A stretch of 64,000 nt of DNA, taken from positions 40,098 through 104,097 of the forward strand of contig JAFDCZ010000001.1 of assembly GCA_019312665.1 (NCBI GenBank). The letters run 5' to 3'. This stretch comes from Deltaproteobacteria bacterium (GTDB taxonomy: Bacteria > Myxococcota_A > UBA9160 > UBA6930). Under the pieces are notes generated by a model that was not told the DNA's origin, searched no databases, and was given only the letters and a program-made list of their open reading frames with translations. Position numbers and translations under genes: made by a program. Shown here piece after piece: positions 37,460 to 53,063 of the stretch (positions are counted from its first letter, which is position 1; every line of letters starts with the position of its first letter).

Positions 37460-40380
37460 GTTCGTTCTCCTGAAAATTGGGGACCGCCCGCCAGCCGCTC
37501 CACCTCGACCCGGGTTCCCCGGTCGGGGCAGCCAGGCTCACCCATGAGCAGCGTGGGCTGGAGCTGGAAGTAGCCGCCCGCCAAATGTATCGGGTTCATG
37601 GGGCTCGGAATCAGCGACTGGTGTGATTTGCCGTGTTTGAACTGGAAGGGCTCCCAGGCGTGGTAGACCACGACCTGTCCCGGGCGCACGGAGGACGTGA
37701 CTTTGGCCTGGATCTCGAAGGAGCCGATGTCGTTGTGGACGCGTACAGAACTTCCGTCTTGGATACCGCGCTCGGCGGCGTCCTCATCGCCGAGGAAGAT
37801 GAGCGGCTCACCCCGCTGCAGTTGAAGCAGGGTCTGGTTGTCCCGCCATGAAGCATGGATGGACCAACGGTCGTGGCCTCCGGTCATCTCGAGGGGGTAC
37901 TCGCCACCGAGCTTCGGGTTGTCCTTGTGAACGGGCAGCTCCTCCCCCATCTCCAGGAAGTACGGATGGTCGATGTAGAACTGCATCCGTCTGGTGAGCG
38001 TGGGCCAGGGCTGCTTCTTCTGAACCTGCCAGGTATTCGCCGTGATGGTCTGGTCCGGCTCGATATCGGTTGCGTGGTTGATCTGGGAGGGGCTCATGCC
38101 TACGCCCGTGTAGCGCGCGTAGCCCTTCTCCTTGATCTCCTTCCATCGCACGCCACCGAGATTCGTGGTCACGGCGAGCATCTCGTCGAGGACCTCCTCG
38201 GTATTCTCCTCCGTGAAACGTCCGCCGAACGTGAACTCGTCGTAGACCTGATCCAGACGCCGGGTCTCTCCCGCACGGTCCACGAATTCGGAGATGCCCC
38301 GCTCGATCGCGCGCTGCTGCAGCGTCTTCAGGAAGAGGCAGTGGAACTCCCAGTCGGGCTTCGACTCGCCAAGCGGCTCGACCGCGCGGGTCGTCACGTG
38401 GCAAAATGGCGTGATGGGGGATCCCCAGGTGAGGTCGTCCTTCTCGTACCAGCCCGCCGCAGGGAACACGTAGTCGCTGAAGCGCGCCGTGTTGCTCATC
38501 CGCCAATCGACCGTCACGAGCAGATCGAGCTTCGGCAGAAGCCCGTCGATCATCCGGTCGTAGCCCCGCACCCGGCGCAACAGATTGCCACCGACTTCGA
38601 ACACGATGCGCGGGGGCGTGGTGGGGACCACCTGCCATCCCTTTGCCACGGCTTCGTCGAAGTACTCCTTGAACTCGCGGGGCAGCGAAGGATCCCAACG
38701 TTTCGCGCTTCCGTAGAGTTCCTCGAGCCCCCCATACTTGTAGAGCCACAGCGGAGTGGCGAGGTAGCGCCCGGACTTGTACTCCAGACGGCTCAAGGCG
38801 GAGATCATCATCTCCTCGGAGAAGCCATCCAGCTTCATCCTGGCCATCGCGGGCAAGGCCTGGAGGCCGAGGACAGCGAGGCCGAGCTTGGGAGAAAGCT
38901 TGCCGTTGGCCACGGCGAGCGCATCCGGACCCGCGATGGAGAGGTAGGGAAAGGCTGCGATTCCGGCGCCCTTCTTCCCGATCTGACCCGCCAGGGTGAA
39001 GGCCAGGATCAGGCCCCGTTCCATTTCCATACCGTGGTAGTACTTGGAGAAGTTCGTCTGGGTGATGGCGCTGGCCGCCTTGGCGGTCGCCAACGCCCGC
39101 GCCAGCTTGCGGATCTGCTTCGGAGGCGTCCCAGTGATCACGGATGCAGCCTCCGGGGTGTACTCCGCGAGGCGTTTCTTCAGCAATGCAAAGACCGGCG
39201 TCACGCCGACCTCGCCTGTCCGCGTCTGTACCCGGTATTCTCCCTCGAGGCTGGGATCGAGTTCGCCGAGAGCCAGGGTCGATCGCGGTGCCGGGACCAC
39301 CTTTCCCGCCTTCTGATCAAAAATGTAGAAGGCGTCTTCCCGGCCACCCTCCTCCAGGTCGCTCTCGCGCAGGAAGAGGCCGGTGTCTTCACGCACCAGG
39401 AAGGGCAGATCGGTTTGCTCGACGACGAAGTGACGGTCGAAGATCTCCTCCTCGACCATCACCTGCGCCAGCGCCATCCCCAGGGCCGCATCGGTTCCCA
39501 TCTGCACCGGAACCCACTCGTCCGTGTGGACGCAGGAGGCGTTGTAGTCCGGCGTGATCGCTACCACGCGCGCCCCGTGGTAGCGGGCCTCATTGATGAA
39601 ATGGACGTTGGGGATCTGGGTGTAGTTGGGATTGCCGCCCCAGATCAGGATCAGGTCGGAGTAGAAGAGATCATCGAAGGAGCCGGTGAAGCAGATCTTC
39701 CCAGTCGTGACAGTGGCGCCGGGATAGTGGTCGCCGATCTCCGTGTTCGTCTCGAGCATCGGCGTGTCGAGCACGGAAACGGTGCGCGTCAGCCCGAGAC
39801 CATGGCAGCCATTGGTGATGGCGCTTCCCATGTCCCAGATGATGGAGCCGGGCCCATCCTCTATCAGGGCATCGATGGCGGAATCGGCCACCTCGCGCAG
39901 CCCCTCCTCCCAGGAAATGCGCTTCCAGCGCCCCTCGCCGCGTTCCCCGACGCGCTTGAGCGGGTGCAACATGCGCGACGGGTCGTGCATGCGGTCGCTG
40001 TAGCAGGCCCCCTTCTGGCATCCGCGCGGGTTGAAGTCGGGCACCTCGGAATTGGTCTGCGGATAGTCGCCTACCTGTTCTTCGCGCCAGACCACGCCAT
40101 CCTTGACGTAGACGTTCCACGCGCAGCCGCGCTGGTAGGCGCAGTTCACGTAGTGGGTGCTCTTGGAGATGGAATCCCAGGTCCAGCGCTCACGGTAGAG
40201 GTCCCGCCAGTCCCCGTACGCGGGCGTGGGGGGCGGAGCCGCGGGAGAAACGGATTCGACGAGTTCCGCCTCCTGACAGCGGAGCTGGGTGAGAGCGAGC
40301 ACGACGGTCGCTCCGGATCCCCAGAGGAATTCCCGCCGGTTGATGCCTGGCGTTCTCGCGCGGTCGACGTCGAATCCCAT
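37456..40380 (-). CDS. Type II DMSO-reductase-family Mo-bisPGD alpha subunit, EBDH/S25DH-like, paralog 2; no adjacent beta/gamma
   Basis: The 1021-aa track ORF was trimmed to ATG 40380, which sits 1 nt after the upstream hydratase stop. MGFDVDRARTPGINRREFLWGSGATVVLAL (Tat signal), STHYVNCAYQRGCAWNVYVKDG and NPRGCQKGAC, TNTEIGDHYPGATV. Confidence 0.9.
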   Translation of the reverse strand: MGFDVDRARTPGINRREFLWGSGATVVLALTQLRCQEAELVESVSPAAPPPTPAYGDWRDLYRERWTWDSISKSTHYVNCAYQRGCAWNVYVKDGVVWREEQVGDYPQTNSEVPDFNPRGCQKGACYSDRMHDPSRMLHPLKRVGERGEGRWKRISWEEGLREVADSAIDALIEDGPGSIIWDMGSAITNGCHGLGLTRTVSVLDTPMLETNTEIGDHYPGATVTTGKICFTGSFDDLFYSDLILIWGGNPNYTQIPNVHFINEARYHGARVVAITPDYNASCVHTDEWVPVQMGTDAALGMALAQVMVEEEIFDRHFVVEQTDLPFLVREDTGLFLRESDLEEGGREDAFYIFDQKAGKVVPAPRSTLALGELDPSLEGEYRVQTRTGEVGVTPVFALLKKRLAEYTPEAASVITGTPPKQIRKLARALATAKAASAITQTNFSKYYHGMEMERGLILAFTLAGQIGKKGAGIAAFPYLSIAGPDALAVANGKLSPKLGLAVLGLQALPAMARMKLDGFSEEMMISALSRLEYKSGRYLATPLWLYKYGGLEELYGSAKRWDPSLPREFKEYFDEAVAKGWQVVPTTPPRIVFEVGGNLLRRVRGYDRMIDGLLPKLDLLVTVDWRMSNTARFSDYVFPAAGWYEKDDLTWGSPITPFCHVTTRAVEPLGESKPDWEFHCLFLKTLQQRAIERGISEFVDRAGETRRLDQVYDEFTFGGRFTEENTEEVLDEMLAVTTNLGGVRWKEIKEKGYARYTGVGMSPSQINHATDIEPDQTITANTWQVQKKQPWPTLTRRMQFYIDHPYFLEMGEELPVHKDNPKLGGEYPLEMTGGHDRWSIHASWRDNQTLLQLQRGEPLIFLGDEDAAERGIQDGSSVRVHNDIGSFEIQAKVTSSVRPGQVVVYHAWEPFQFKHGKSHQSLIPSPMNPIHLAGGYFQLQPTLLMGEPGCPDRGTRVEVERLAGGPQFSGERT

Positions 40381-40381: not shown

Positions 40382-41191
40382 TCAGGTTCCCTTGAAGCGC
40401 GGCTTGCGCTTCTCGGCGAACGCCGCCGGCCCCTCCTTCGCGTCCTCGGAGCCGAGCACACGAGCGCCCAGGGCCTTCTCCAGCACGAAACCCGACTCGA
40501 GCTCCAAACCGCGAACGGCAATCTCCTTGGCCGTGCGCATGGCGAGTGGTCCGTTCTTGCAGAGATCCTCCGCCCACTTCATTGCCGTGGGCATGAGCTC
40601 GTCAGAGGGTACGACCTCGTTGATCAGCCCTACTTCGTACGCGCGCTGGGCGCTGATCGGCTTGCCGGTCAGCAGGAGTTGCATCGAGATGGCCCAGGGG
40701 ATCTGGCGTGGAAGCCGGATGTGGGTGCCGCCGAGCGGCACGAGGCCCCAACGGACTTCTCCGAGGCCGAAGGTGGCGTGCTCGGCGGCGATCCGAAGGT
40801 CCGTCCCCAGAAGCATCTCCATCCCGCCCGCGATACAGAATCCGTTGACCGCACAGATGATCGGCTTGAAGACGTCGGAGAACTGGCGCTTGGTCGTATC
40901 ATCGAAGCCGAGAGTGTCTCCACCGGTCAGCATGGGTGCGGCCTCCTTCAGGTCGAGCCCCGAGGAGAAGGCCTTGTCACCGCTCGCAGTAAAAACGGCC
41001 ACCCAGAGATCGGGATCTTTCTGGAACGCCCGCATGGCGTCCTCGATGCCGGTGAGCATCTCCGCGGTGAGCGAGTTGAGCGCATCGGGGCGGTCGATGG
41101 TGATGACCGCGATGTGGTCCTTGCACTCGTAGGAAAGGGTGGACGGTAACTCCAATGGTTTGACTCCCTCGATGTTCTGAGCGTCTCGCAT
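40382..41191 (-). CDS. Enoyl-CoA hydratase/isomerase (crotonase) family protein
   Basis: 269 aa. IAVITIDRPDALNSLTAEM, AFSSGLDLKE, ICAVNGFCIAGGMEMLLGTDLRIAAEHATFGLGEVRWGLVP and EGPAAFAEKRKPRFKG. Confidence 0.9.
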   Translation of the reverse strand: MRDAQNIEGVKPLELPSTLSYECKDHIAVITIDRPDALNSLTAEMLTGIEDAMRAFQKDPDLWVAVFTASGDKAFSSGLDLKEAAPMLTGGDTLGFDDTTKRQFSDVFKPIICAVNGFCIAGGMEMLLGTDLRIAAEHATFGLGEVRWGLVPLGGTHIRLPRQIPWAISMQLLLTGKPISAQRAYEVGLINEVVPSDELMPTAMKWAEDLCKNGPLAMRTAKEIAVRGLELESGFVLEKALGARVLGSEDAKEGPAAFAEKRKPRFKGT

Positions 41192-41202: not shown

Positions 41203-41628
41203 TCAGGACGTGCCGCGCCGGAATTTCGGCAGCGTGACATCCTCGTTTGCATCTTCGAAAACCACCTCGACGGCCATATCAATCTCCAGCTGGTCGGGCG
41301 GGCAATCCGTCACCTGGCTCAGGATCCGGACGCCCTCCTCCATCTCGATCACGACCGGCGCGTAGGGACACGCCTCCTGGAAAGCCGGGTGAAGCGCACG
41401 GACGACCACGGTCCACGTAAACACCCTTCCCCGCCCGGAGGAGCGCTCCCACTCCCATTCCCACGAGCCGCACCCGGCGCACATTTCCCTGGGCACGTGG
41501 CGCCAGCTCCGGCAATCGCGGCAGCGCTGAAAGCGGAGTTCGCCGTTCTTGCAGTACCCATAGAACTCTCCGGCGAGACCCTCGAGCAAGGGCAGCGGCT
41601 TGGGGATTCCTGTCTCGACCTGGTTCAT
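41203..41628 (-). CDS. DUF35 family Zn-ribbon/OB-fold protein
   Basis: 141 aa. Zn-ribbon CRDCRSWRHVPREMCAGC and OB-fold-like YAPVVIEMEEGVRILSQV. Lies directly downstream of a thiolase-like gene. Confidence 0.85.
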   Translation of the reverse strand: MNQVETGIPKPLPLLEGLAGEFYGYCKNGELRFQRCRDCRSWRHVPREMCAGCGSWEWEWERSSGRGRVFTWTVVVRALHPAFQEACPYAPVVIEMEEGVRILSQVTDCPPDQLEIDMAVEVVFEDANEDVTLPKFRRGTS

Positions 41629-41641: not shown

Positions 41642-42802
41642 TCACGCGCGGCGCAGGATCGCGATGCTGCCGTCGCCGAAATCGCCCCAGCCGGTCACGA
41701 CACCAATCTCGGCATTGGCGACCTGACGCTCGCCTGCATCGCCGCGCAGCTGTCGAACGGCCTCGACGATGTGGTTCATGCCAAGGACGTGCGCCTCCGA
41801 GAGGAGCCCGCCATGGGTGTTCACCGGCAGCTCTCCGCCCAGCTCGATGCGCCCGCCCTCGACGAAGGCACCGCCCTCGCCGCGCTTGCAGAAACCTGCC
41901 TCCTCCAGCTGCTGTAGTACCTCGAAGGTGAAGCAATCGTAGATCTGGGCGAAGTCCACGTCGCGAGGTGAAATTCCGGCCTGTCCGAAGGCTTCGGGGG
42001 CGGCGAGGCTGAGACCCGTCTGGAAGAAGTCCTTCCTGTTCGTGATCTCGTCTGCAGGGAAAGGCTGTCCGGACGCCGCGCCCATGATGAAGACCGGCTC
42101 CTTGCCGAGGTCACGCGCCCGTTCCGGCGTGGTCACCACGACCGCCGCCGCGCCGTCGGTCTCGAGACAGCAATCGAACAAGCGATAGGGATCCGCCAGC
42201 ATGGGAGAGGCCATGTAGTCTTCGAGGGTCATGGCGCGACCCTTCATCACGGCGTTGGGATTCCGCTGGGCGTGCTTGCGCATTGCCACGGCGATGCACC
42301 CGAGCTGCTCGGGCCGTGTCCCGAACTCGTGCATGTGCCGGCGTGCCATCACCGAGTACCACTGGGGCGGAGCCGAGAAGCCGAAGGGCAGATAGAAATC
42401 GCGTGCGATCGCCCCGCCGGGGAGGGACGAAACATCCTCGGCGACCGTCTGGCGCGCCCGTGGCCCTGAGTAGCCGTTCCACCCGGCTGGGATCAGCACG
42501 TAGTCGGCGAGCCCTTGCCGAACCGCGGCGCCGGCCACCCGAAGCGAAGCCACTGGGGCGGCGCCACCCATCCAGACGATGGATTGGAAGCGCAGGTTCT
42601 CGCAGCCGAGATTGGCGGCGAAGCTCTCGGCATGGCCCAGGTTCGGGAAGGGCATGATCCCGTCGATCTGGCTGCCCTCGAGCCCGGCGTCCTCGATGGC
42701 GCGCACCGCGGCCTGCAGCTGGATCCCCAGCGTGCTCAGCCCCGAGCCGGGCTTCCGCACGTAGGCGGTCTCCCCGATCCCGACGATGCAGGCCTCGTCC
42801 AT
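41642..42802 (-). CDS. Thiolase-superfamily protein lacking the nucleophilic cysteine (aldolase-like candidate)
   Basis: ATG 42802 lies 9 nt after GGAGGA (MDEACIVGIGETAYVRK). The alternative start GTG 42823 overlaps the amidohydrolase stop as GTGA. The nucleophile elbow reads SIVWMGGAAPVAS, with Gly where the two paralogs have Cys. Confidence 0.85.
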   Translation of the reverse strand: MDEACIVGIGETAYVRKPGSGLSTLGIQLQAAVRAIEDAGLEGSQIDGIMPFPNLGHAESFAANLGCENLRFQSIVWMGGAAPVASLRVAGAAVRQGLADYVLIPAGWNGYSGPRARQTVAEDVSSLPGGAIARDFYLPFGFSAPPQWYSVMARRHMHEFGTRPEQLGCIAVAMRKHAQRNPNAVMKGRAMTLEDYMASPMLADPYRLFDCCLETDGAAAVVVTTPERARDLGKEPVFIMGAASGQPFPADEITNRKDFFQTGLSLAAPEAFGQAGISPRDVDFAQIYDCFTFEVLQQLEEAGFCKRGEGGAFVEGGRIELGGELPVNTHGGLLSEAHVLGMNHIVEAVRQLRGDAGERQVANAEIGVVTGWGDFGDGSIAILRRA

Positions 42803-42819
42803 TGCGCCCGATCCTCCGC

Positions 42820-43791
42820 TCACTTCACCCGTTTGGTGGGCTCGATCTTCGCCAGCCGGGCCAGGTTCAGACCGAGGAAGCCTGCCCGCATCTCATCGGT
42901 GATCTCCGGGTAGCCGTAGTTCTTCTGCAACTCTTCGGGGATCTGCAGATTGCGCGCCCAATCGACCACTCGCTTGGTGTCGTCGAAAGGCAGGTCGAGG
43001 CCCATCACGATCTTACTCGGATCCACCCATTGGAGTGCGGTACCGATCGCGTGGTAGCCGCGATAACGCGAGCGCTCGTACCAACCCGCGATGCCCGACA
43101 TGCTCAGGAACAGGTTCTGATGCTTGCCAGCGAGTCCGATCAACTCCTCGGTGTGCGGCCAGCCCATGTGGTAGGCGATGATCTTGAGTTCTGGAAAGTC
43201 GAGCAGCACTCGATCGAGGGTGCCCGGGAGGGTGTGGAGGTTGGGCTGTGGCACGACGTACGACATGCCCGTGTGCATGGTCAACGCGATGTCCAGCTCA
43301 CAGGCCTTCTCGTAGAACGGCCACATCCGCCGGTCGTCGAGGGGTCCGTCGTCCTCGGGCTGATACACCTTGCAGAGCTTGGCGTTGCCCTCCTTGACCA
43401 GGTACTCGAGCTCCCAGATGGCGTTGTCGAGGCCGCGTCGGATGATGGGGCCCACCATGGCTTCGAGGTACATACGATCCGGATAGGGCTCGATCTGCTG
43501 CATCATGAATGCGTTGGTGGACATGGCGACCGTGTGCCCGCTGATGTCCATCATCCCTTCGCGCAGAGCGAAGCAGACGTCTACACCCGCCTCGTCCATG
43601 TACTTGATCAGCTCGCTCGCGATGGGATGGGGCCACTCCCCGGATAGATCGCGGCCCGACCAGGCGCGCATCACGCCATCGACGCTTGCCCACCAGCGCT
43701 GGGTGTTCGGGTAGTAGCTGATCTCGGCCATGGTGACCGGGTTCATGAAATGGCACTCGGACAGGGCCACGAAATAGTCATCACTCACCAT
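42820..43791 (-). CDS. Amidohydrolase-2 (PF04909-like, metal-dependent hydrolase/decarboxylase/hydratase) family protein
   Basis: 323 aa, ATG 43791 behind GAAGGAGGA. TIM-barrel-hydrolase-like LTMHTGMSYV, IIAYHMGWPHTEE and IVMGLDLPFDD. Family assignment by eye only. Confidence 0.75.
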   Translation of the reverse strand: MVSDDYFVALSECHFMNPVTMAEISYYPNTQRWWASVDGVMRAWSGRDLSGEWPHPIASELIKYMDEAGVDVCFALREGMMDISGHTVAMSTNAFMMQQIEPYPDRMYLEAMVGPIIRRGLDNAIWELEYLVKEGNAKLCKVYQPEDDGPLDDRRMWPFYEKACELDIALTMHTGMSYVVPQPNLHTLPGTLDRVLLDFPELKIIAYHMGWPHTEELIGLAGKHQNLFLSMSGIAGWYERSRYRGYHAIGTALQWVDPSKIVMGLDLPFDDTKRVVDWARNLQIPEELQKNYGYPEITDEMRAGFLGLNLARLAKIEPTKRVK

Positions 43792-43812: not shown

Positions 43813-46239
43813 TCATTCGCCCGCAGCCGGTTGCTGCGCGGCGCGGATCAGCGTCCACAGCCGGTTCGGGCTCGCCGGAACCTCGGTCGCCCGCGCGCCC
43901 ATGGGTGCCAGGGCATCGTTGATGGCGGAGAGGATGGCGGCGGGCGTCGTATGCATCGCGCCCTCGCCGCAACCCTTGGCGCCGAGCGGCGTGAAGGGCG
44001 AAGGCGTCACGACGATTCCCTTCTTCGTGGCCGGCACCTCGTAAACGGTCGGGAGCAGGTAGTCCATGAAGCTCGAGGTGAGGATCTGCCCCTGCTCGTC
44101 GTAGACATACTCTTCGAGGAGCGCTGCACCTACGCCCTGGGCGATGCTGCCCTCGGTCTGCCCCTCCACCGTGGCGGGATTGAGGCGAGTGCCGCAATCG
44201 TCGACGACGCAGTACTCGAGGATCTCTACGAGCCCCGTCTCGGGATCCACCTCCAGCATCACGACGTGCACCGCCTGGGCGGCTGTGAGGTAGCTCTTCG
44301 CCCTGCCCTCCTCGTCGACCTCCGTGCGACCGGGCGCCGTCCAGACGTGGGTCGCTTCGGGGCGCGGGTCCACGTCGGGAGGCAGAAGATCGCTCCGCGC
44401 CAGCATGGTGCCCACGACCTGGGCCATCGGCATCTCGACGCCGGCCACCCCCTTGGCCACGAGCTTCCCGTCCACCAGGTCCACCTGCTCCGGATCCATC
44501 TGGAAGAGCCCGGCCGCCACCTTGGCGAGCTTCAGCCTGAGCTTCCCGCAGGCGCCGAGCACGGCGCCGGTGAGCGCCACGCCCAGACGGCTCCCACCCG
44601 GGCCGAACGCCGGGGGCGCCGAATGCGTGTCCAGGCAGACGACCGTGATGTCCTCGAACCCCACGTTGAAGTAGTCCGCCACGAGTTGGGTCGCCAGGGT
44701 GTACTGGCCCTGCCCCTCCAGGGCAAAGCCGACCCGCACGCTGATCTTCCCCATGATGTCGATGCTGACGGTCGCGCCCTCCGGCACGCCTGTCCCCTGC
44801 ACGCCCACGATCGCGTAGGCGTTCCAGTCGAAGACGCCGGGCTCGATGGCGCTCACGACGCTGATGCCGACGCAACGACCCTCTGCCCGGGCCTGATCCC
44901 GCCGTTCGCGGAGCTTCCCGTAGTCCGCGAGCGCGAGCGCCTTGTCGAGCACGGCCTCGTAGTCGCCGCTGTCGTACTCGTTGCCGCTAGCAATCGTGTA
45001 GGGGAAGGAATCCTTCGGGATGAAGTTCGTGCGCCGGAACTCCGCAGGGTCGATGTCGAGATCGCGTGCAGCGATGTCCATCATCTGTTCCAGCACGCAG
45101 TTATGCGGCGGCGGCCCCATTCCACGGTACGGACTCTGGGGCAGCTTGTTGGTAGCGACGATCGTCAGGTCGTAGCGCGCAACCGGGATGGCATAGGGCC
45201 CGGTGAACGAGGCCAGCGGCTTCGCCGTACTGATGGCACCGAAGCCCTCACCCGTGGCCCCCATGTCGTCGAGCAGCTTGACGTCGAGGCCCGTGACGCG
45301 GCCGTCGTTCTTCACGGCAAGGGAAACCTCGTAGTGGCGATCCCAGGCCTGGCCTCCACCGCCCGTCAAATACTCCGCGCGATCTTCGATCCACTTCACC
45401 GGCCGACCGCCGGCCTTGCGGGTCAGGAGCGCCGTGACATCGGTACCTCGCGTGCCGCCTTTGCCGCCGAAACTCCCGCCGTGGGGATGGGCGATCACGC
45501 GCACCTTGTTGGACGGAAGTCCCAGAACGGCGGCCCGGCCCAGCCCGAAGTGGGTGGCGGATTGGACACTCGCCCGGAGCGTGAGGCTCTCGTCCACCGG
45601 GTCCCATTGGGCGATCACTCCGAACGTCTCGAGAGGATTGGCGCCCAGGCGATGCCAGCGGAACTTCTCGGTGAAGACACGATCTGCGTCGCCGAACGCC
45701 CCGTCGACATTGCCCCAGGTGAAGACCCGTTGGAGCATGACGTTGGTGCCCTTCTCCTCGATCACCAGGGGACTGCCCGGCTCCATCGCCTTCACGGGGT
45801 CGACCACGGCCTCGAGGGACTCATAGTCGACGGCGATCAGCTCGATGGCATCTTCGGCGACGTAGCGGTTCACCGCGGCCACCGCCGCCACGGGCTCGCC
45901 CACGTAGCGCACCTTGTCCCCCGCGAGGCAATGGGTGCCCCATTCCTCGGGCACCGTAGGTTCCGGATGGCTCCACCGGCGGGCGTCGTCGGAGGTCACC
46001 ACCGCGATCACGCCGGGCAGCTTCTCGGCCTCGTTGATATCGATCGAGACGATTCGCGCGTGGGCGACGGGACTGCGCAGGATGGCTGCATGCAGCATTC
46101 CCGGCAGGACCACGTTGTCGATGAACTCCGTGCGCCCGGTGACGAGATGCGGGTCCTCCACGCGCGGGACGCCACGGCCCACCCAGCGCGGCGCGCTGTT
46201 GGGAAAATCTTCCAGGGTTTTGGGGATCTGGACGGACAT
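43813..46239 (-). CDS. Xanthine-dehydrogenase/CoxL-family molybdopterin-binding large subunit (not a CO-dehydrogenase type)
   Basis: ATG 46239 lies 5 nt after GGAG (MSVQIPKTLEDF); the alternative start ATG 46263 lies directly after the S-subunit TAG. WVGRGVPRVEDPHLVTGRTEFIDN, HPHGGSFGGKG, QSPYRGMGPPPHN, VDDCGTRLNPATVEGQTEGSIAQG and LGAKGCGEGA. Confidence 0.9.
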   Translation of the reverse strand: MSVQIPKTLEDFPNSAPRWVGRGVPRVEDPHLVTGRTEFIDNVVLPGMLHAAILRSPVAHARIVSIDINEAEKLPGVIAVVTSDDARRWSHPEPTVPEEWGTHCLAGDKVRYVGEPVAAVAAVNRYVAEDAIELIAVDYESLEAVVDPVKAMEPGSPLVIEEKGTNVMLQRVFTWGNVDGAFGDADRVFTEKFRWHRLGANPLETFGVIAQWDPVDESLTLRASVQSATHFGLGRAAVLGLPSNKVRVIAHPHGGSFGGKGGTRGTDVTALLTRKAGGRPVKWIEDRAEYLTGGGGQAWDRHYEVSLAVKNDGRVTGLDVKLLDDMGATGEGFGAISTAKPLASFTGPYAIPVARYDLTIVATNKLPQSPYRGMGPPPHNCVLEQMMDIAARDLDIDPAEFRRTNFIPKDSFPYTIASGNEYDSGDYEAVLDKALALADYGKLRERRDQARAEGRCVGISVVSAIEPGVFDWNAYAIVGVQGTGVPEGATVSIDIMGKISVRVGFALEGQGQYTLATQLVADYFNVGFEDITVVCLDTHSAPPAFGPGGSRLGVALTGAVLGACGKLRLKLAKVAAGLFQMDPEQVDLVDGKLVAKGVAGVEMPMAQVVGTMLARSDLLPPDVDPRPEATHVWTAPGRTEVDEEGRAKSYLTAAQAVHVVMLEVDPETGLVEILEYCVVDDCGTRLNPATVEGQTEGSIAQGVGAALLEEYVYDEQGQILTSSFMDYLLPTVYEVPATKKGIVVTPSPFTPLGAKGCGEGAMHTTPAAILSAINDALAPMGARATEVPASPNRLWTLIRAAQQPAAGE

Positions 46240-46263
46240 ACGGTCTCCGGGGTCGGAAGGCAT

Positions 46264-46770
46264 CTAGGAGTGCTGGGTGGAGCCAGCGACGTGCGCATTC
46301 CGGAGCTTGGCCGCCGCCAACCTCACCGAACGCAGAATCGACTGGTAGCCGGTGCAGCGGCAGATCTGCCCTCCGAGCGCCTCTCGGATCTCGTCCTCGC
46401 TCGGATCCGGGTTCTCGTAGAGCAGTTCGTGGACAGTCATCAGGAAGCCGGGCGTGCAGAATCCGCACTGAAGGCCGTGCTCTTCCACGAAGGCCTGCTG
46501 GATCGGGTGGAGCTTTCCGTCCTCCTCCAGTCCTTCCACCGTGGTCAGGCTTGCCCCGTCCACCTGCACCGCCAGCGTCAGGCAGGAGCGCACAGCTCGG
46601 CCCTCCAGCAGCACCGTGCAGGCCCCGCACACACCGTGTTCGCATCCCACATGGGTTCCAGTGAGCGCGAGCTCGCCGCGCAGGAAGTCCGCCAGGGTCG
46701 TGCGCGGCTCGACGTGCGCTTCGTGCATCGTGCCGTTGATCATCACGCTGATCTTCTGCTGTGCTGTCAT
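46264..46770 (-). CDS. Xanthine-dehydrogenase-family [2Fe-2S] small subunit
   Basis: Trimmed to ATG 46770, which overlaps the M-subunit stop as ATGA. GCEHGVCGACTV (plant-type 2Fe-2S) and QCGFCTPGFLM ... CRCTGY (second 2Fe-2S). Confidence 0.9.
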   Translation of the reverse strand: MTAQQKISVMINGTMHEAHVEPRTTLADFLRGELALTGTHVGCEHGVCGACTVLLEGRAVRSCLTLAVQVDGASLTTVEGLEEDGKLHPIQQAFVEEHGLQCGFCTPGFLMTVHELLYENPDPSEDEIREALGGQICRCTGYQSILRSVRLAAAKLRNAHVAGSTQHS

Positions 46771-47669
46771 CGGCGTTCCTCCTGGCCCGGCTCGCGGCCG
46801 CCGGCCCTCGCGACCGCTTCGCCGAGGGCTCGGATGGTCAGGACCCCTGCCAGATTGCGGCGGTATTCCGCCGAGGCGTGGACGTCCGACAGGGGCTCTT
46901 CGAGGCCCTCGCTGGCCGTCGCGCCAGCCTCCCGGAAGAGCGCGTCGCCCGGACGCTGTCCGACGAGCCGTTCTTCGACCCCGCCGAGGCGAACCGCTGC
47001 CCCGCTGACCCCGAACAAAACGATCCGTACCTCGGAGAAGCTCCCGCTCGCGTCGAGTCGGACGGTCGCCGCCGCGCCACCCAGAGCGAAATCCCCGTGT
47101 CGGCGCGCAACCTCCACGAAGGACCATCCCGTGCCCGGGGCGAGTATCGGAACCCGCACCTCGGTCAGGATTTCCACGGGTTCCATGGCCGTCATCAGAT
47201 AACCCTTGAAGAATTCGTCTGCGGCGATACTGCGCTCACCGCCGGGACCGACCACACGCAGCTCCGCGCCAAGCACGAGGGCCAGCGCCGGGTATTCCGC
47301 AGCCGGATCGGCATGCGCCATCGAGCCACCCACCGTGCCCCGGTTGCGGATTTGCGGGTGACCCACCAGCCGGGTCGCGGCGAGGAGAGCGGGCTGACGC
47401 CGGCGCACCAGGTCCGACTCCTCCACCGCTCGCTTGCGGGTCATCGCACCGATGGCGAGCCATTCGCCGTCCTCGCGGATGTACTGCAGCTCTGCGATCC
47501 GGTTGAGGTCGACCAGCAGCTCGGGGCGCGCCATTCGCATGTTCAGCAGCGGAACCAGGCTCTGGCCGCCCGCAAGGATCATGACGTCGTCGTCCGCGTG
47601 GCGCTCGAGCAGGGAGACGGCCTCGCCGAGCGTGTCGGGAGCCGCGTAATCGAAGCGAGCGGGCTTCAT
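46767..47669 (-). CDS. Xanthine-dehydrogenase-family FAD-binding medium subunit (CoxM-like)
   Basis: Trimmed to ATG 47669. MKPARFDYAAPDTLGEAVSLLERHADDDVMILAGGQSLVPLLNMRMARPELLVDL, IRNRGTVGGSMAHADPAAE and SAEYRRNL. No cysteine-rich insertion. Confidence 0.9.
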   Translation of the reverse strand: MKPARFDYAAPDTLGEAVSLLERHADDDVMILAGGQSLVPLLNMRMARPELLVDLNRIAELQYIREDGEWLAIGAMTRKRAVEESDLVRRRQPALLAATRLVGHPQIRNRGTVGGSMAHADPAAEYPALALVLGAELRVVGPGGERSIAADEFFKGYLMTAMEPVEILTEVRVPILAPGTGWSFVEVARRHGDFALGGAAATVRLDASGSFSEVRIVLFGVSGAAVRLGGVEERLVGQRPGDALFREAGATASEGLEEPLSDVHASAEYRRNLAGVLTIRALGEAVARAGGREPGQEERR

Positions 47670-47788: not shown

Positions 47789-48670
47789 ATGAGTTGGAGC
47801 GACTGGCAGGAGGCCGCGGGCGACGGACTCGACTTCGAGGAGATCCTCTACGAGAAGAAGTGGCACGGGGAGCTGGAAGGAGGCGTGGCTCGGGTCACCA
47901 TCAACAAGCCCGAGAAGTACAACGTCATGACCCTCGCCACGGTCGACGAGATGTTCCGCGCCTTCTACGACGCCAACCATGACACGTCGATCGGCGTGAT
48001 CGTGATCGCCGGCAAGGGGAAGCACTTCGGAGTCGGCGGAGACGTCGAATGGGAAAAGTGGGGCCTGCGGGAAGCCTTCTACAACCGGTATCCCCACAAC
48101 CGCCTGATCCGGCTCTCTCGAAAGCCGATCCTCGCCGCCGTACAGGGCTACTGCCTGGGCGGGCATAACCACATGGCCTACTGCTGCGACTTCACCATCG
48201 CCGCAGACAACGCGAAGTTCGGCCAGGCGGGCCCCAAAGTGTCGAGCCCCGCGGACGGGTTCTTCGTGCCGTATCTCACCAAGGTGGTCGGAGCCAAACG
48301 GGCACGCGAGATGTGGATGCTCTGCCGGCGCTATCCCGCTGAGCAGGCCCTGGAAATGGGACTCGTCAACAAGGTCGTTCCTCTCGAAGCCATGGAGGAG
48401 GAGATCGACGGGTGGTGCGAGGAACTCCTGGCCGTGAGTCCGGGCTGCCTCGAAATCCTCAAGGCAAGCTTCGACCAGGAGATGGACGGGTACGCCGAGA
48501 TGGGTGTCATCTCCAGCCAGTTCTACCCCGATTGGTTCGACATGCCGGAAGGGAAGGAGGGTGGAGCCTCCTTCACCGAGAAGCGCCCTCCCCGCTTCTG
48601 GAGCCTTCGCGAGAACGAACGCCAAGCGCGTCAACAGCTCATCGATGATTACGAGGGAGATGACGACTAG
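47789..48670 (+). CDS. MenB/BadI-subfamily crotonase (1,4-dihydroxy-2-naphthoyl-CoA synthase / 2-ketocyclohexanecarboxyl-CoA hydrolase-like)
   Basis: Trimmed to ATG 47789. FEEILYEKKWHGELEGGVARVTINKPEKYNVMT, GHNHMAYCCDFTIAADNAKFGQAGPKVSSPADGFFVPYLTKVVGAKRAREMWMLCRRYPAEQALEMGLVNKVVPLE and EGGASFTEKRPPRFW track the MenB pattern as I recall it. Confidence 0.8.
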   Translation: MSWSDWQEAAGDGLDFEEILYEKKWHGELEGGVARVTINKPEKYNVMTLATVDEMFRAFYDANHDTSIGVIVIAGKGKHFGVGGDVEWEKWGLREAFYNRYPHNRLIRLSRKPILAAVQGYCLGGHNHMAYCCDFTIAADNAKFGQAGPKVSSPADGFFVPYLTKVVGAKRAREMWMLCRRYPAEQALEMGLVNKVVPLEAMEEEIDGWCEELLAVSPGCLEILKASFDQEMDGYAEMGVISSQFYPDWFDMPEGKEGGASFTEKRPPRFWSLRENERQARQQLIDDYEGDDD

Positions 48671-48708: not shown

Positions 48709-49926
48709 TCAACGTCTTCGCGCCTCCTCGATCTCCGCATGCGTCGCGACCACATCGTTCGAGACGAGATCCGCGATCTCGCCCGAGGCGTAGCCCAGCT
48801 CGCGCAACAGCTCCTCGCTGTGCTCGCCCAGAAGCGGCGGCGGCTGCTGCACCTCACAGGGCGTACCATGGAAGTGGATCGGTACTCCGGTGACGTCCAT
48901 GGGCCCGAGTTTGGGATGGTGCACGCTGACGATCATCCGGTTGTGCCGGACCTGCGGGTCCTCCGCGACCTCGACGGCCCCGTTGACCGGCGCGAAAAGC
49001 ACGTCCGCAGCAACCGACCGCTTCTGCAGTTCGTCAACCGTGAAGTCTTTGCAGCGCTCGTCGATCAGGCGATCCAGCTCGTCCTCGTTGGCGAGGCGGC
49101 GATCGATGCTCTCGAAGCGCACGTCATCCGCCCACTCGACGTCCAGGGCCGTGCAGAGGTTGCGGAAGAACTTCTCCGAGGGACAGGTGATGACCGCCTT
49201 TCGATCATCACCGCAGGTGTAGATACCCGAAGGCGCGAAGTAGAGGCTGCGGTTTCCGGTTCGTGGAGTCGGTTCCCGGGCAATGAGATAGGTGCCCAGA
49301 GAGCTGGCCTGGGCATGGAGCAGAGCGTCGAGCAGCGAGATGTCGATGCGCTGCCCCTCGCCGGTTTCGTCCCGCGTCCGGAGCGCCGCGAGCGCGGCCG
49401 TGCTCACGAGCAGAGAGGTCATCACGTCGATCATCGGAACGGTGACCCGCACCGGCTCTCCCGAGGGCTCTCCGTTCAGCGCCAGCAACCCGCCAAAGCC
49501 CTGGGCCAGGAAGTCGATCCCAGGCCGGCCCGCGTAGGGTCCGTCGGCGCCGAAGGCCGTGATGCCGATCCAGATGATGTCCGGGCGGTGCTTCCGCACG
49601 TGCTCGTAATCGAGACCCAGCCTGGAGAGCGCCGGCTCCCGGATGTTCGTGATCAGGACGTCCGCCGTCGCGGCCAGGCGCGCGAAGACCTCTCGGCCTG
49701 CATCGGTCTTCAACTCCAGGACCATCGCCCGCTTGCTTCGGTTGAGGCTGAGGAAGGGCGAACGCTCTCCGTCGCGCTCGGGCCCCATGTGGCGACTGTC
49801 GTCGCCCCGGTGGGATTCCACCTTGATCACGTCCGCACCGAGATCCCCCATCAGCGTCGCCCCGTAGGGGCCCGCCAGCATGGTGGCCATGTCGAGCACG
49901 CGGATTCCCGCGAGCGGACCCGTCAT
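48709..49926 (-). CDS. Family III CoA-transferase (third of three in a row)
   Basis: Trimmed to ATG 49926 ([45 protein letters not shown]). Active-site region [14 protein letters not shown]. Confidence 0.9.
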   Translation of the reverse strand: [405 protein letters not shown]

Positions 49927-49934
49927 CGTGTCGT

Positions 49935-51146
49935 TCACGGGATGACACCCCGCTCCTTGAGCTCGCTGATGCGATCCCATTCCATCTCGAGCAGATTCAT
50001 GAGGAGAAGCTCGGTGTCCTGGCCGAGCTCGGGGCCGAGACTCTCGACCCGCCCGGGCGTCTTGCTCAGGGTGATGGGCAGGCCGCGGATATCCACTTCA
50101 CGATTCACCTCCCCGCAATGCACCTCGAGCAGGTAGTCGTTCTCCCAGGCCTGAGCATCCCCGGAGACGTCCTTCAGGTTCTGGATCGGAGCGGCGGGGA
50201 GGCCTAACGACCTGCAGCGATCGATCCACTCCTGGGAGTTCTGCTCCTGCAGAACGCTGTCGAGGAGCGCAACGAGTTCGGCATTGTGCTCCCCCCGCTT
50301 CCTCGCGCTTTCGAACCTCGCATCGCTAGCCAGCTCCGGCCGCTCGAGGCTCTCGCACAGCGCGGCCCAGTTCTCGTCGGTATCTTCGAGGCAGAGGAAG
50401 ATCCACTTGTCCTTCACCTGGTAACGGTTCCACAGCGGGTTGCCTGCCTGCTTCCTCGACTGCTGGGTCGAATAGAGCGACTTCCCCGAAGCCAGGAAGG
50501 GCTGGAGTGTCGGGGCGGCCATGAAGAGCTGTGCGCCGTAGAGAGAGGCATCCAGGGATTGGCCGCGTCCCGTCCGCCGGCGCTCATGGAGCGCCAGCAT
50601 GATTCCCAGGGCCGACATGAGGCCCCCGTAGGTATCGCCGGAGCCCATGCCGAGATAGATGGGAGGCTCTCCCGGCTCGCCTTGCCGGCTCATCAGACCG
50701 GTCAACGCCTGCACGTTGATGTCGTAGGACGGCCGGTTGATCTCGCGAGCATGGCCGTAACCACTGTTGGTGGCATAGATGAGGCGTGGGTTGATCTCGC
50801 GAAGTTTCTCCCAGGTGAGTCCCCAAACCCTCAGATTCTCGCGCTGGAAGTTCGACAGGAAGACATCGGACTTCCGAACCAGCTCATAGAAGAGTTCCTG
50901 CCCCTCCGGCTTCTTGAGGTCGACCGCCAGGCTCTTCTTGTTGCGATTGATCACCAGGAAGTACTGGTTCCAATCACCGATGGCCAAGGCCTTGATGCTG
51001 CGCACACCGCGCGCGCCGTCGCCGCCCCCGGGACGCTCGACGTGGATGACCTCGGCGCCGAAGTCCGCGAGGTATTGCGCGCAGACCGGTCCCTGCAGCC
51101 ACTGCGTCAGGTCGAGAACGCGGATGCCTTCGAGTGCCTGCTTCAT
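49935..51146 (-). CDS. Family III CoA-transferase (second of three)
   Basis: The 620-aa track ORF was trimmed to ATG 51146, which overlaps the upstream stop as ATGA. [46 protein letters not shown] and [13 protein letters not shown]. Confidence 0.9.
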   Translation of the reverse strand: [403 protein letters not shown]

Positions 51147-52363
51147 GCCCCAGGCTCCGCGCCCAGGATTCCATCGGCTTCGAGTTCCTGGATCCGGGAT
51201 TCCGCGTAGCCCAGCCGTTCGCGCAGGATCTCGGCCGTATGCTGCCCCACGCAGGGAGCCGTCCGACGAAGACGCGCCGGACTCTCGCTCATGTGGATCG
51301 GGAAGCCCAGGCTCTGGATCGGGCCGTGGGTCGGATGCTCGAGGTTCAGGATGTAGCGATTGGCTTCGGCGTTGGAATCCGAGGCCGGGTACTCGTACTT
51401 CTCGATGACGTCGGCGGGAAGCTGTTTCGCGTCGAGTTCCTGTTTCCAATGGGAGCCCGGCCTGGTCCGGAAGCGCTCGTCGAGGACTTGCATCATCTCG
51501 AGACGATGCTCTCCGCAGCGCTTCTCGTGGCTGTCGAAGCGGGGATCGGCGACGTCGAGGCCTACGATCTCGGCGAAGGCCGGCCAGTACTTGTCCGTAT
51601 CCGGCATCGCCAGGGTGACCCATCGGTCGTCGGAGCTGGGATACATCGGGCCACTCATGGGATTGCCGGAATCGAGACGTGAGAGCGGCTCGAGGAAGCG
51701 ATCGTCCCGGATCGCAAGATAGGCCTGCATGTCGAGGCTCTGGGAATACATGTTCCCGCCGAAGAGGGACGCGTCCACCACCTGCCCCTCCCCACATTCT
51801 TCGCGATGGTGGAGGGCAAGCATCGTGCCGAGGGCGAGCATCACCGCCGTGTGCATCTGGCCGACGCCGGTGTAGACAGGCGGCTGGCCCGGCTGGGGCA
51901 GGGTCGGCATCACGCCGGTACGCGCCGCTGCCAGCTCATCGTAGGCGGGCAAGTCGCGATCCGGCCCCTTCGGGCCGAAACCGCTACCGCGGGTGAAGAT
52001 GATGTCCGGCTTGAGGGCGCACAGACTCTCGTAGTCGCAGCCCTTCTCATCCAGGGTCGCCGACGGCACATCTGTCAGGAAGACATCCGCCCCCGCAACC
52101 AGCTTCTCCAGGATCTCGCGGCCAGCAGGCTCAACGAGGTCCACGGCGAGGCTCTGCTTGTTGCGGTGAGCGAGCTCGTCGAGGGAGTTCCATCGCTCGG
52201 GTGGATGCATGCCGTCGCGGCCGTGATCGACCGTTCGAGCGTCGGAGAGATCTACGACCCGGATCACGGTCGCGCCGTAATCACCCAACAGCGCTCCGGC
52301 CAACGAGGCGTAGAACTCGCGGGTCATGTCGAGGACGACGACATCCTGAAGCGCCCCAGTCAT
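51143..52363 (-). CDS. Family III CoA-transferase (first of three)
   Basis: 406 aa. LQDVVVLDMTREFYASLAGALLGDYGATVIRVVDL and DLPAYDELAAARTG. Confidence 0.85.
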   Translation of the reverse strand: MTGALQDVVVLDMTREFYASLAGALLGDYGATVIRVVDLSDARTVDHGRDGMHPPERWNSLDELAHRNKQSLAVDLVEPAGREILEKLVAGADVFLTDVPSATLDEKGCDYESLCALKPDIIFTRGSGFGPKGPDRDLPAYDELAAARTGVMPTLPQPGQPPVYTGVGQMHTAVMLALGTMLALHHREECGEGQVVDASLFGGNMYSQSLDMQAYLAIRDDRFLEPLSRLDSGNPMSGPMYPSSDDRWVTLAMPDTDKYWPAFAEIVGLDVADPRFDSHEKRCGEHRLEMMQVLDERFRTRPGSHWKQELDAKQLPADVIEKYEYPASDSNAEANRYILNLEHPTHGPIQSLGFPIHMSESPARLRRTAPCVGQHTAEILRERLGYAESRIQELEADGILGAEPGA

Positions 52364-52481: not shown

Positions 52482-53063
52482 TCAGCCCGTCTGCCGAGCG
52501 AAGAGCCGGTGGAAGAAGGCTGCGACGGGCGCCCAGATGACGCCAAGGATCACGCGCAGCAGGGGAACCGACTCGTCAGCAACCGGGGCCTCTGACAAGG
52601 TGTCCGAGGCCGGCGCTTCCAGGGCCTGGCGCGTCCGGGTAACGAATTGCCCGAAGAGCTGGCTCGAGACGCCCTGGATCATTCCGCGTCCGACCTGCAT
52701 CACGCGGCCGGTGAGATCCACCTCCGCCGAGGTGACCACTTCGGTCTGCCCATCTGGGAGGGTGCGCAGCTCGGCCGTGACCGTGCCCTTGGCCGTGCCG
52801 CCGCCGGTCTCTCGACCCTCCGCCACCATGCACACGCGACGTGCCTGTTCATCGACATCGCGGAGATGCACCCGCCCGCGATAGCGCGTGGTGATGGCGC
52901 CCAGTTTGATCTTCACCGCGCCGTTGAAGGTGCGGGCATCGACCACTTCCTCCAGCACCGCTCCGGGCATGCAGGTGACGACGCGATGCGGGTCCAGCAG
53001 GAATTGCCAGACGGCCTCGATGGGCACCGCGACCTGGAAGGTCTCCTCGATCTGGATCGACAT
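52482..53063 (-). CDS. CoxG/SRPBCC-family protein with a C-terminal hydrophobic tail
   Basis: 193 aa. MSIQIEETFQVAVPIEAVWQFLLDPHRVVTCMPGA, LGAITTRYRGRVHL and VDLTGRVMQVGRGMIQGVSSQLFGQF. Tail VPLLRVILGVIWAPVAAFFHRLF. Confidence 0.8.
   Translation of the reverse strand: MSIQIEETFQVAVPIEAVWQFLLDPHRVVTCMPGAVLEEVVDARTFNGAVKIKLGAITTRYRGRVHLRDVDEQARRVCMVAEGRETGGGTAKGTVTAELRTLPDGQTEVVTSAEVDLTGRVMQVGRGMIQGVSSQLFGQFVTRTRQALEAPASDTLSEAPVADESVPLLRVILGVIWAPVAAFFHRLFARQTG

Follow-up and report, generated by a model that had tools for sequence, protein, structure and literature searches.

A probable AtcABC/1-TDH-family enzyme at the head of a likely ring-A module for oxygen-independent steroid degradation in a 'Deltaproteobacteria' genome

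The closest described relatives of the genes considered here belong to the oxygen-independent 2,3-seco pathway of steroid degradation. The AtcABC enzyme of this pathway (2016), or 1-testosterone hydratase/dehydrogenase (1-TDH), is known from work on Steroidobacter denitrificans, Sterolibacterium denitrificans and Thauera spp. (Yang et al. 2016, as relayed in PMC5554518, PMC7264893 and PMC11780191). The hydrolase SRAH, purified from Sterolibacterium denitrificans by Jacoby et al. in 2025, is an Amidohydrolase_2 protein that cleaves androsta-1,3,17-trione and is often encoded beside 1-TDH (PMC11780191). Five further steps, namely CoA activation, dehydrogenation to the 4-ene, acetate hydrolysis, hydration and acetyl-CoA-releasing aldol cleavage, were proposed in the same work from CoA-ester metabolites, their enzymes being left unassigned; the pathway was described as apparently restricted to beta/gamma-Proteobacteria, and the question was raised whether an unknown route is used by other anaerobes (PMC11780191). 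Here we analyse a stretch of 64,000 nucleotides (65% G+C), hereafter the window, from a 'Deltaproteobacteria bacterium' (assembly GCA_019312665.1, contig JAFDCZ010000001.1, positions 40,098 to 104,097), in which three genes for an enzyme of the xanthine oxidase family, termed M, S and L, head an operon. Their products probably form an AtcABC/1-TDH-family enzyme, and the operon is likely to be a ring-A module of the 2,3-seco pathway. The original prediction, made from the sequence of the window without database searches, had invoked AtcABC as the closest functional analogy; judged by sequence comparison, the relation goes further and is one of homology and family membership.

The order FAD subunit, iron–sulphur subunit and molybdenum subunit, foreseen for the operon head at 47669–43813 on the minus strand, is borne out by the Pfam domains of the three products (lengths in amino acids, aa). 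The subunit genes and two sites within L are as follows.

46767–47669, minus strand: M, the FAD subunit (300 aa; Pfam FAD_binding_5 and CO_deh_flav_C), in the position of the AtcABC/1-TDH medium subunit.
46264–46770, minus strand: S, the subunit with two [2Fe-2S] clusters (168 aa; Pfam Fer2 and Fer2_2).
43813–46239, minus strand: L, the catalytic Mo-cofactor subunit (808 aa; Pfam Ald_Xan_dh_C, MoCoBD_1 and MoCoBD_2).
45100–45132, minus strand: active-site loop PYRGMGPPPHN, residues 370–380 of the 808-aa L.
44965–44991, plus strand: site of the atcA reverse primer, with 2 mismatches, encoding (A/P)SGNEYDSG; 0 matches expected by chance.

GGAGG lies 8 nucleotides (nt) 5′ of the M start codon (ATG at 47669), and the start of S overlaps the stop of M by 4 nt. 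The eight Cys residues of S fall into two [2Fe-2S] patterns (43, 48, 51, 63 and 102, 105, 137, 139). For L, the ATG at 46239 is preferred, with GGAG 8 nt upstream and with NCBI and JGI gene calls that both give 808 aa; an alternative in-frame ATG at 46263 abuts the stop of S. L is identical to the NCBI proteins MBW2241414.1 and MBW2392692.1 ('Deltaproteobacteria bacterium'), which bear generic annotation only.

L is 59% identical to AtcA of Thauera terpenica and T. butanivorans and 61–62% identical to that of Aromatoleum, as against about 35–40% to proteins of solved structure. Its active-site loop reads QSPYRGMGPPPHN where CoxL has AYRCSFR. The expectation that L would lack the CO-dehydrogenase loop was correct, since PYRGMGP occupies the aligned positions and the Cu-binding Cys loop is replaced. 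In the wider alignment, PYRGMGPPPHN of the window stands against AYRCSFR in form I CoxL, AYRGVGF in QorL and PYRGYGPPPHN in AtcA of Thauera and Aromatoleum. The loop that had first drawn attention is an AtcA-family signature, because the window L and Thauera AtcA have the motif in common and neither CoxL nor QorL contains it; it is one of five motifs with this distribution (PYRG[MY]GPPPH, GG[SG]FGGKGG, EYL..GG.Q.WDR, FG[PQ]GGSRLG and GAKGCGEGA.HT). Alignment to solved structures shows that L conserves the catalytic residues Gln226, Arg372 and Glu759. In the JGI annotation, '3-oxo-Delta1-steroid hydratase/dehydrogenase large subunit' is the KO-derived name given to two relatives, 84% and 73% identical to L. 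To our knowledge, no structure of AtcA exists. A further line of comparison is provided by the published degenerate primers specific for atcA, the reverse one of which encodes PSGNEYDSG (PMC5554518). The primer pair spans about 1.17 kb on L, as expected for the amplicon.

A form I Mo-Cu carbon monoxide dehydrogenase was considered and rejected, the AY(R/A)CSFR loop with its Cu-binding Cys being replaced by PYRGMGP. A broader version of this idea, in which M/S/L would either be a form II CoxL-type protein or hydroxylate N-heterocycles as Qor, Kdh and Ndh do, draws on the best matches of L among solved structures (CoxL 435 bits, QorL 395, KdhL 362), on the public annotation of relatives as 'carbon monoxide dehydrogenase' or 'caffeine dehydrogenase', and on the CoxG gene nearby. 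Nevertheless, we regard it as highly improbable: the loop PYRGMGPPP is neither AYRCSFR, with its Cys, nor AYRGAGR; the family stands apart from CoxL and QorL on a long stem with bootstrap 100; the NCBIfam scores for carbon monoxide dehydrogenase and Xdh models are about half the cut-offs; genes of an N-heterocycle pathway are missing; and the adjacent genes code for steroid-type CoA-ester enzymes.

Relatives of L were recruited by scanning for exact matches to the reverse primer in one genome per GTDB species, which gave 99 stretches (L005–L103; other numbers with the prefix L denote further relatives). These loci are 8-kb blocks, so that absence of a gene from a locus is not absence from the genome. 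Among them are T. terpenica 58Eu, T. butanivorans, Aromatoleum evansii KB740, other Aromatoleum and Azoarcus strains, metagenome-assembled genomes (MAGs) of Sterolibacterium and many of Steroidobacteraceae; others come from Binatia, Myxococcota, Acidimicrobiia, Microthrixaceae, Dehalococcoidia, Chloroflexota, Thermodesulfobacteriota and the Tara MAG ARS66. In the literature, atcABC is recorded for both of these Thauera species (PMC9980454; PMC7264893), and A. evansii KB740 grows on testosterone with nitrate (PMC11780191).

A neighbour-joining tree (Kimura distances, 801 columns, 100 bootstraps) was built from 61 near-full-length L sequences of these loci, the window L, two CoxL and QorL rebuilt from structure alignments; MhyADH, form II CoxL, HcrA and the purine/nicotinate enzymes lie outside this set. 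The 62 L sequences form a monophyletic AtcA family on a long stem relative to CoxL and QorL (bootstrap 100). Grouping of L with unrelated enzymes, which had been named as the outcome that would count against the AtcABC connection, is thus not seen with respect to CoxL and QorL, and the form II CoxL and purine/nicotinate enzymes outside the tree score far lower. Within the family, the window, L001 and ARS66 form a clade (bootstrap 100) that is joined with Myxococcota and Acidimicrobiia sequences (87) in a subclade that also holds 'Deltaproteobacteria' MAGs; altogether, Binatia, Myxococcota, Acidimicrobiia, Chloroflexota and marine MAGs are members. Two other clades each have bootstrap 100: one of 28 beta/gamma-proteobacterial sequences (Thauera, Aromatoleum, Sterolibacterium MAGs and one Steroidobacteraceae paralogue) and one of Steroidobacteraceae/Rhodocyclaceae paralogues. 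Because the proteobacterial clade excludes the window, the latter represents a sister lineage within the AtcA family, not the studied clade. Sequence identity of 59–62%, the clade with bootstrap 100, the shared motifs and the reverse-primer site with two mismatches all support the earlier proposal of a water-dependent hydroxylase of the xanthine oxidase family close to AtcABC.

The genes that follow L on the minus strand, and those on the other side of M, are listed below.

42820–43791, minus strand: Amidohydrolase_2 protein, candidate SRAH-type steroid ring-A beta-diketone hydrolase (323 aa; Pfam Amidohydro_2, 88.6 bits).
41642–42823, minus strand: thiolase-like protein of SCP-x type, candidate catalytic subunit of an acetyl-CoA-releasing aldolase (Pfam Thiolase_C_1 only).
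41203–41628, minus strand: DUF35 protein (ChsH2-type zinc ribbon and OB fold), partner of the thiolase-like protein (Pfam zf-ChsH2 and OB_ChsH2_C).
40382–41191, minus strand: enoyl-CoA hydratase, candidate SDA-CoA hydratase (Pfam ECH_1).
37456–40380, minus strand: alpha-2, an EBDH/S25DH-like alpha subunit of DMSO-reductase type II (974 aa; Pfam Molybdopterin and Molydop_binding).
36254–37459, minus strand: acyl-CoA dehydrogenase, candidate DSA-CoA dehydrogenase (Pfam Acyl-CoA_dh_N, _M and _1).
35436–36257, minus strand: flavoprotein of the nitroreductase family (Pfam Nitroreductase).
34190–35401, minus strand: true thiolase (Pfam Thiolase_N and Thiolase_C_1; nucleophile motif NACGSG).
32529–34193, minus strand: AMP-binding acyl-CoA synthetase (Pfam AMP-binding and AMP-binding_C).
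47789–48670, plus strand: divergent crotonase of MenB/BadI type, candidate acetate-releasing C–C hydrolase (Pfam ECH_1).
48709–52363, minus strand: three family-III CoA transferases, candidates for DSAO activation (Pfam CoA_transf_3 in each).
52482–53063, minus strand: CoxG-type SRPBCC protein, candidate quinone shuttle for M/S/L (Pfam PF06240, COXG).

The operon is tightly packed, with intergenic gaps of at most 34 nt or overlaps of 4 nt, and the amidohydrolase gene begins 21 nt downstream of L. No terminator-like site was found on the coding strand between 32000 and 49000, the six hairpins of this region all lying on the opposite strand and their number being below the expectation from shuffled sequence; an internal terminator separating L from the downstream genes, which would have spoken against a single operon, is accordingly not seen. 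A scan for sigma-70-like promoters found none, a result that is uninformative because the genome has 65% G+C. The sole inverted repeat in the intergenic region between M and the divergent crotonase gene is weak and widely spaced (14 nt, 79%), and no operator is claimed. As regards gene content, the predicted sequence of amidohydrolase, thiolase-like protein, DUF35, hydratase and EBDH-like alpha stands, but the description of the thiolase-like protein as 'Cys-less' was inexact: it has seven Cys, and what it lacks is the loop with the nucleophilic Cys, the NACGSG segment of the true thiolase at 34190–35401 aligning to a gap. The label 'beta-oxidation-type operon' is too general for a probable ring-A module of the 2,3-seco pathway, in which an SRAH-type hydrolase directly follows L.

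All open reading frames of the recruited loci were compared with the window proteins by BLASTP. Three loci of known carriers or testosterone degraders gave the following identities to the window.

T. butanivorans: M 55%, S 65%, L 59%, then a CoA transferase, 65%.
T. terpenica 58Eu: L 59%, CoA transferase 64%, amidohydrolase 67%, hydratase 61%.
A. evansii KB740: L 62%, CoA transferase 63%, a reductase of the old yellow enzyme (OYE) type 68% (to the protein at 58207–60195), amidohydrolase 64%.

Over the Thauera, Aromatoleum and Azoarcus atc loci, M is 55–59% identical to its counterparts, and S is 63–71% identical to those of the proteobacterial loci in general; T. butanivorans, Azoarcus Aa7 and A. 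diolicum likewise have the genes in the order M-S-L. One of the three CoA transferases of the window, CoAT1, shares 63–65% identity with the transferase whose gene immediately follows atcA in the loci of Thauera, Aromatoleum and Sterolibacterium. The amidohydrolase falls into one subfamily with its counterparts in the Thauera and Aromatoleum atc clusters, at 64–68% identity (67% to T. terpenica, 67–68% to Thauera R32x and SZAS KAN-75, 64% to the partial sequence of A. evansii KB740); it is only 36–41% identical to a second subfamily found beside Steroidobacteraceae paralogues.

No NCBIfam equivalog cut-off was reached for M, S, L or the amidohydrolase, so that naming rests on homology to atc loci; the best models for L score about half their cut-offs (group 5 carbon monoxide dehydrogenase 509/950, glyceraldehyde dehydrogenase alpha 506/790, HcrA 411/995). 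The second best of these models, together with the glyceraldehyde dehydrogenase beta and gamma models that come first for M and S, all below cut-off, would be in keeping with a general aldehyde oxidoreductase resembling the archaeal glyceraldehyde dehydrogenase. Such an enzyme would oxidize an aldehyde derived from the alcohol made by alpha-2 and pass the carboxylate to a CoA ligase, and the operon indeed has both alpha-2 and an AMP-forming ligase. This is very unlikely, though, in view of scores well under the cut-offs (267/350, 227/290 and 506/790), of the 59–62% identity of L to AtcA, of the persistence of M-S-L and the amidohydrolase where alpha-2 is absent (L001, L105, L106), and of a separate NAD-type aldehyde dehydrogenase at 18999–20537. 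The many CoA-ester enzymes of the operon, and the detectable homology of L to HcrA (300 bits), might alternatively suggest an enzyme like 4-hydroxybenzoyl-CoA reductase that reduces one of the CoA thioesters. The predicted absence from M of the Cys-rich insertion of that enzyme is borne out, since M has no Cys at all and the [4Fe-4S] insertion defining HcrB is therefore missing; moreover, the models TIGR03193–03195 give only 411/995, 104/405 and 174/258, and L is much closer to AtcA. We see hardly any chance that such a reductase is encoded here.

Each of the ring-A steps left unassigned in the literature has a candidate gene in the operon or in the adjoining genes, and the following sequence of events can be proposed. 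M/S/L would take a 3-oxo-delta1 steroid, for example androst-1-ene-3,17-dione or 1-testosterone, add a water-derived oxygen at C1 and remove two electrons, giving a cyclic 1,3-diketone. The SRAH-type amidohydrolase would then cleave the C2–C3 bond to yield a 2,3-seco acid, which the CoA transferases or the ligase may activate, and the acyl-CoA dehydrogenase would introduce the 4-ene. For the acetate-releasing hydrolase, the best candidate is the MenB/BadI-like crotonase, which belongs to a family that includes C–C hydrolases (best NCBIfam matches DHNA-CoA synthase, 234 bits, and BadI, 206 bits, both below cut-off). The hydratase, whose best NCBIfam match, again below cut-off, is the cholesterol side-chain hydratase type EchA19, would add water. 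Finally, the thiolase-like/DUF35 pair may act as a retro-aldolase that releases acetyl-CoA and leaves a three-ring product.

The wider window holds further genes of a kind consistent with steroid degradation: KstD-like dehydrogenases, two EBDH-like alpha subunits with beta and gamma, an OYE/BaiCD-like reductase and electron transfer flavoprotein (ETF). The OYE/BaiCD-like Fe-S flavoenzyme (58207–60195, plus strand) is 68–69% identical to genes in the A. evansii and SZAS AMP-45 atc loci and is a candidate for the reduction of androsta-1,4-diene-3,17-dione to the 1-ene. Two KstD-type flavoproteins are encoded at 7811–9571 (plus) and 30070–31572 (minus), the first scoring 619 bits against the 3-ketosteroid-delta1-dehydrogenase model (cut-off 789). 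A second block of DUF35, thiolase, NMO-type FMN enzyme and a fused double CoA transferase (810 aa) is conserved between the window (13718–18943, plus) and L105, a relative whose L is 78% identical (15978–22427, minus), and may be another steroid-ring module. Two luciferase-like monooxygenases and a protein resembling F420H2-dependent quinone reductase (9316–10677, plus; 57072–58076, minus; 60002–60730, plus) raise the possibility that oxygen- or F420-dependent steps accompany those that need no oxygen.

The chemistry assigned to M/S/L and the amidohydrolase, from enone to 1,3-diketone followed by hydrolytic ring opening, could also serve another alicyclic enone, such as a terpenoid, a hopanoid or bacterial-sterol ring, or a monocyclic cyclohexenone. 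There is precedent for this in MhyADH of Alicycliphilus denitrificans, a 2-cyclohexenone hydratase/3-hydroxycyclohexanone dehydrogenase that performs the same chemistry on cyclohexenone (PMC3044224). The position of the window outside the proteobacterial AtcA clade with weakly supported deep nodes, the FAD enzymes resembling limonene dehydrogenase and phytoene desaturase beside a second EBDH-like alpha gene, the acetone-carboxylase-like genes beside the module in relatives, and the paralogues and second amidohydrolase type of Steroidobacteraceae would all be compatible with a substrate of this kind. On the other hand, the amidohydrolase is 64–68% identical to SRAH-type genes, and SRAH is virtually inactive on cyclohexane-1,3-diones (PMC11780191); genes of proteobacterial androgen clusters match the CoA transferase, the hydratase and the OYE reductase at 61–68% identity; KstD-like and S25DH-like genes lie in the same window; and the motifs of L agree with AtcA and not with those quoted for MhyADH. 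We therefore consider a non-steroid enone possible but rather unlikely, and retain a steroid ring A as the probable substrate.

Several points weigh against this assignment. The window falls outside the beta/gamma-proteobacterial AtcA clade, which has bootstrap 100 without it, and the order of the deep branches is poorly supported (bootstrap 21–62). The atcA forward primer has no match to L within three mismatches and matches only with four, and the reference set, being recruited by a primer, is a biased sample of the family. Orthology is argued through Thauera and Aromatoleum loci and Sterolibacterium MAGs, and not through the characterized Steroidobacter AtcA, Sterolibacterium SRAH or MhyADH. 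For the related MhyADH, the hydratase half-reaction has been questioned (PMC4052635). To these may be added the failure of the NCBIfam models, described above, and the existence of paralogues. Two or three AtcA-family genes from different clades occur per genome in FW602_bin.2 (L019/L038/L052), Steroidobacteraceae Bin_35 (L022/L072), L039/L080 and L015/L101, and one paralogue type adjoins a KstD-like gene and the distinct amidohydrolase subfamily that is 36–41% identical to the SRAH type. The paralogues and second amidohydrolase subfamily in Steroidobacteraceae thus imply that the substrate range of the family may exceed one steroid, and suggest several substrate specificities within it.

The core of the module, M-S-L-amidohydrolase-thiolase-like-DUF35-hydratase, is kept in relatives whose L is 89%, 86%, 78%, 74% and 72% identical to that of the window. 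It also occurs in 8-kb blocks from Binatia, Myxococcota, Acidimicrobiia, Dehalococcoidia and Thermodesulfobacteriota, and an SRAH-type gene at 60% identity or more lies in the same block in 22 of the 99 primer loci. The thiolase-like gene is kept beside L in L001–L004, L009, L025, L044, L062, L073, L081, L090 and L104–L106, and in relatives DUF35 always adjoins it. The acyl-CoA dehydrogenase is 93% conserved in ARS66, and the MenB/BadI-type crotonase, at 73–92%, stands beside M-S-L in many loci. In an Acidimicrobiales MAG (L106), which keeps the core, DUF35 and hydratase are fused in one protein of 590 aa (14626–16398) that also has an Acetone_carb_G-like zinc-ribbon region; the fusion supports a functional link between the two products. 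Genes resembling acetone/acetophenone carboxylase (Hydantoinase A/B and Acetone_carb_G) are found beside M-S-L in L001 (1–3758), L104 (1–1741) and L106 (3692–8585), in the last case immediately upstream of M; none were found in the window. Such enzymes might carboxylate the ketone left after removal of ring A and so start the breakdown of ring B.

Alpha-2 calls for separate consideration. Its best match in the PDB is the alpha subunit of EBDH (2ivf, 680 bits), it scores 952 bits against TIGR03479 (cut-off 984.75), and it carries the twin-arginine signal NRREFL; a search for homologues returned only generic public names. It would be a periplasmic hydroxylase exported by the twin-arginine translocation (Tat) system. 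The combination of two molybdoenzyme classes in one transcription unit, which had been singled out as unusual, is indeed seen in the window but is not a general trait. Alpha-2 is confined to the window, ARS66/Tara and L104, with L002–L004 also recorded as carriers; L001, L105 and L106 lack it and retain the other parts of the module. On account of this absence, it is best regarded as a lineage-specific insertion. A natural inference from its sequence would be a steroid side-chain hydroxylase like S25DH/S26DH, accessory to the ring-A module and outside it. EBDH-type beta (Fer4_11) and gamma (EB_dh) genes occur alone at one end of the window (2098–3126 and 3130–3801, both minus), while alpha-2 and a second Tat-signal EBDH-like alpha, alpha-1 (24658–27594, plus), lie 35 and 20 kb from them, respectively, each without beta and gamma genes of its own. 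This suggests that several alpha subunits share one beta–gamma pair, and alpha-2 would most likely use the products of 2098–3801. In Sterolibacterium, S25DH isoenzymes reportedly comprise several alpha subunits that share beta and gamma. Alpha-1 is flanked by amine-oxidase/phytoene-desaturase-like FAD proteins (20621–23913 and 27761–29242, both minus), which recall limonene dehydrogenase CtmAB, another type of oxygen-independent hydroxylase.

The electrons withdrawn by M/S/L would pass from the Mo centre through the two [2Fe-2S] clusters to FAD and from there probably to the membrane quinone, by way of the nearby, apparently membrane-anchored CoxG, whose C-terminus reads VPLLRVILGVIWAPVAAFFHRLF and forms a hydrophobic tail. 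The position of this gene was correctly predicted, but its distance of about 5 kb from the trimer is less of an oddity than it had seemed, as CoxG genes also accompany AtcA-family genes, adjacent or at a short distance, in L002/L003, L008 (Pseudohalioglobus lutimaris), L024, L039 and L101. The CoxG of mycobacterial Mo-dependent carbon monoxide dehydrogenase extracts menaquinone and passes electrons to the respiratory chain (bioRxiv 10.1101/2024.01.09.574806), and by analogy the protein of the window may play a similar role. Beside CoxG, also in relatives, stands a gene for a membrane HdrD-like Fe-S/CCG protein with a hydrophobic N-terminus (53274–55349, plus; 691 aa), and ETF alpha and beta genes lie at 11828–13698 (plus). 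These proteins resemble ETF:menaquinone oxidoreductase, which has been discussed for the electrons of acyl-CoA dehydrogenase (Jacoby et al. 2025, PMC11780191).

Neither the enzyme class nor the pathway is new, AtcABC dating from 2016 and SRAH from 2025. The novelty lies in the compact operon and in its host, a 'Deltaproteobacteria' MAG whose relatives belong to Binatia, Myxococcota, Acidimicrobiia and Chloroflexota or come from Tara Oceans samples; a search of the literature accessible to us found no earlier report of atcA or the 2,3-seco pathway outside Proteobacteria, nor of Binatia with S25DH. The 1-TDH and SRAH core extends to at least five further groups of phylum rank and to metagenomes from the open ocean. 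On balance, we lean towards the view that the ring-A pathway is widespread beyond denitrifying beta/gamma-Proteobacteria, in Binatia-like 'Deltaproteobacteria', Myxococcota, Acidimicrobiia, Chloroflexota and Tara water-column bacteria, with one operon that names the unassigned enzymes and is coupled to CoxG and, in some lineages, to an S25DH-like subunit. This would change which organisms are expected to remove sterols and steroid hormones from sediments, soils, sludge and seawater, and the compact operon offers a short list of candidates for five ring-A steps known from metabolite evidence only. Since the reverse primer is exact in many non-proteobacterial genomes, PCR surveys of atcA may already detect such genes and may thus be unspecific for denitrifying Proteobacteria in the environment.

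Comparison with the known systems places the window as follows. Form I CoxSML with CoxG (1n5w, 8uem) shares the subunit architecture, provides the best solved matches and has its counterpart in the membrane-anchored CoxG-type protein nearby; the window differs in lacking the Cu-holding AYRCSFR Cys loop and in belonging to a separate, long-stemmed clade. With MhyADH there is agreement in the order M-S-L, the Cys spacing of S, the net chemistry of enone and water to 1,3-diketone, and a KstD-like gene nearby (PMC3044224). The substrate of MhyADH is monocyclic, however, and its L motifs GGSFGSK, GTGPGG and GGGEGG (PMC3044224) differ where the window agrees with AtcA, which is weak evidence that the window L may be nearer to AtcA than to MhyADH. 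As in S25DH/S26DH and EBDH, alpha-2 is an alpha subunit of DMSO-reductase type II with a Tat signal, EBDH alpha being the best solved match; unlike them, it sits inside a ring-A operon, an arrangement undescribed in the literature examined. Ltp2-ChsH2, in which ChsH2 is the DUF35 partner, is a retro-aldolase of the steroid side chain. The pair in the window likewise combines a thiolase fold that lacks the nucleophilic Cys loop with a DUF35 zinc-ribbon/OB protein, but its DUF35 stands alone and its proposed substrate, by extension of the pathway of PMC11780191, would be a ring-A-derived 5-hydroxy acyl-CoA and not a side chain. The amidohydrolase is of the same family as SRAH (WP_154715975.1), has a similar size (about 320–340 aa), is encoded beside 1-TDH genes and compares at 64–68% identity with its counterparts in Thauera and Aromatoleum; its host lies outside beta/gamma-Proteobacteria. 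Finally, M/S/L shares with AtcABC/1-TDH the order of the subunit genes, 59–62% identity in L, the sequence motifs, and a locus with CoA transferase, SRAH-type amidohydrolase and hydratase; it differs in forming part of a separate subclade, in having the ring-A genes gathered in one compact operon rather than scattered, and in the EBDH-like alpha subunit embedded among them.

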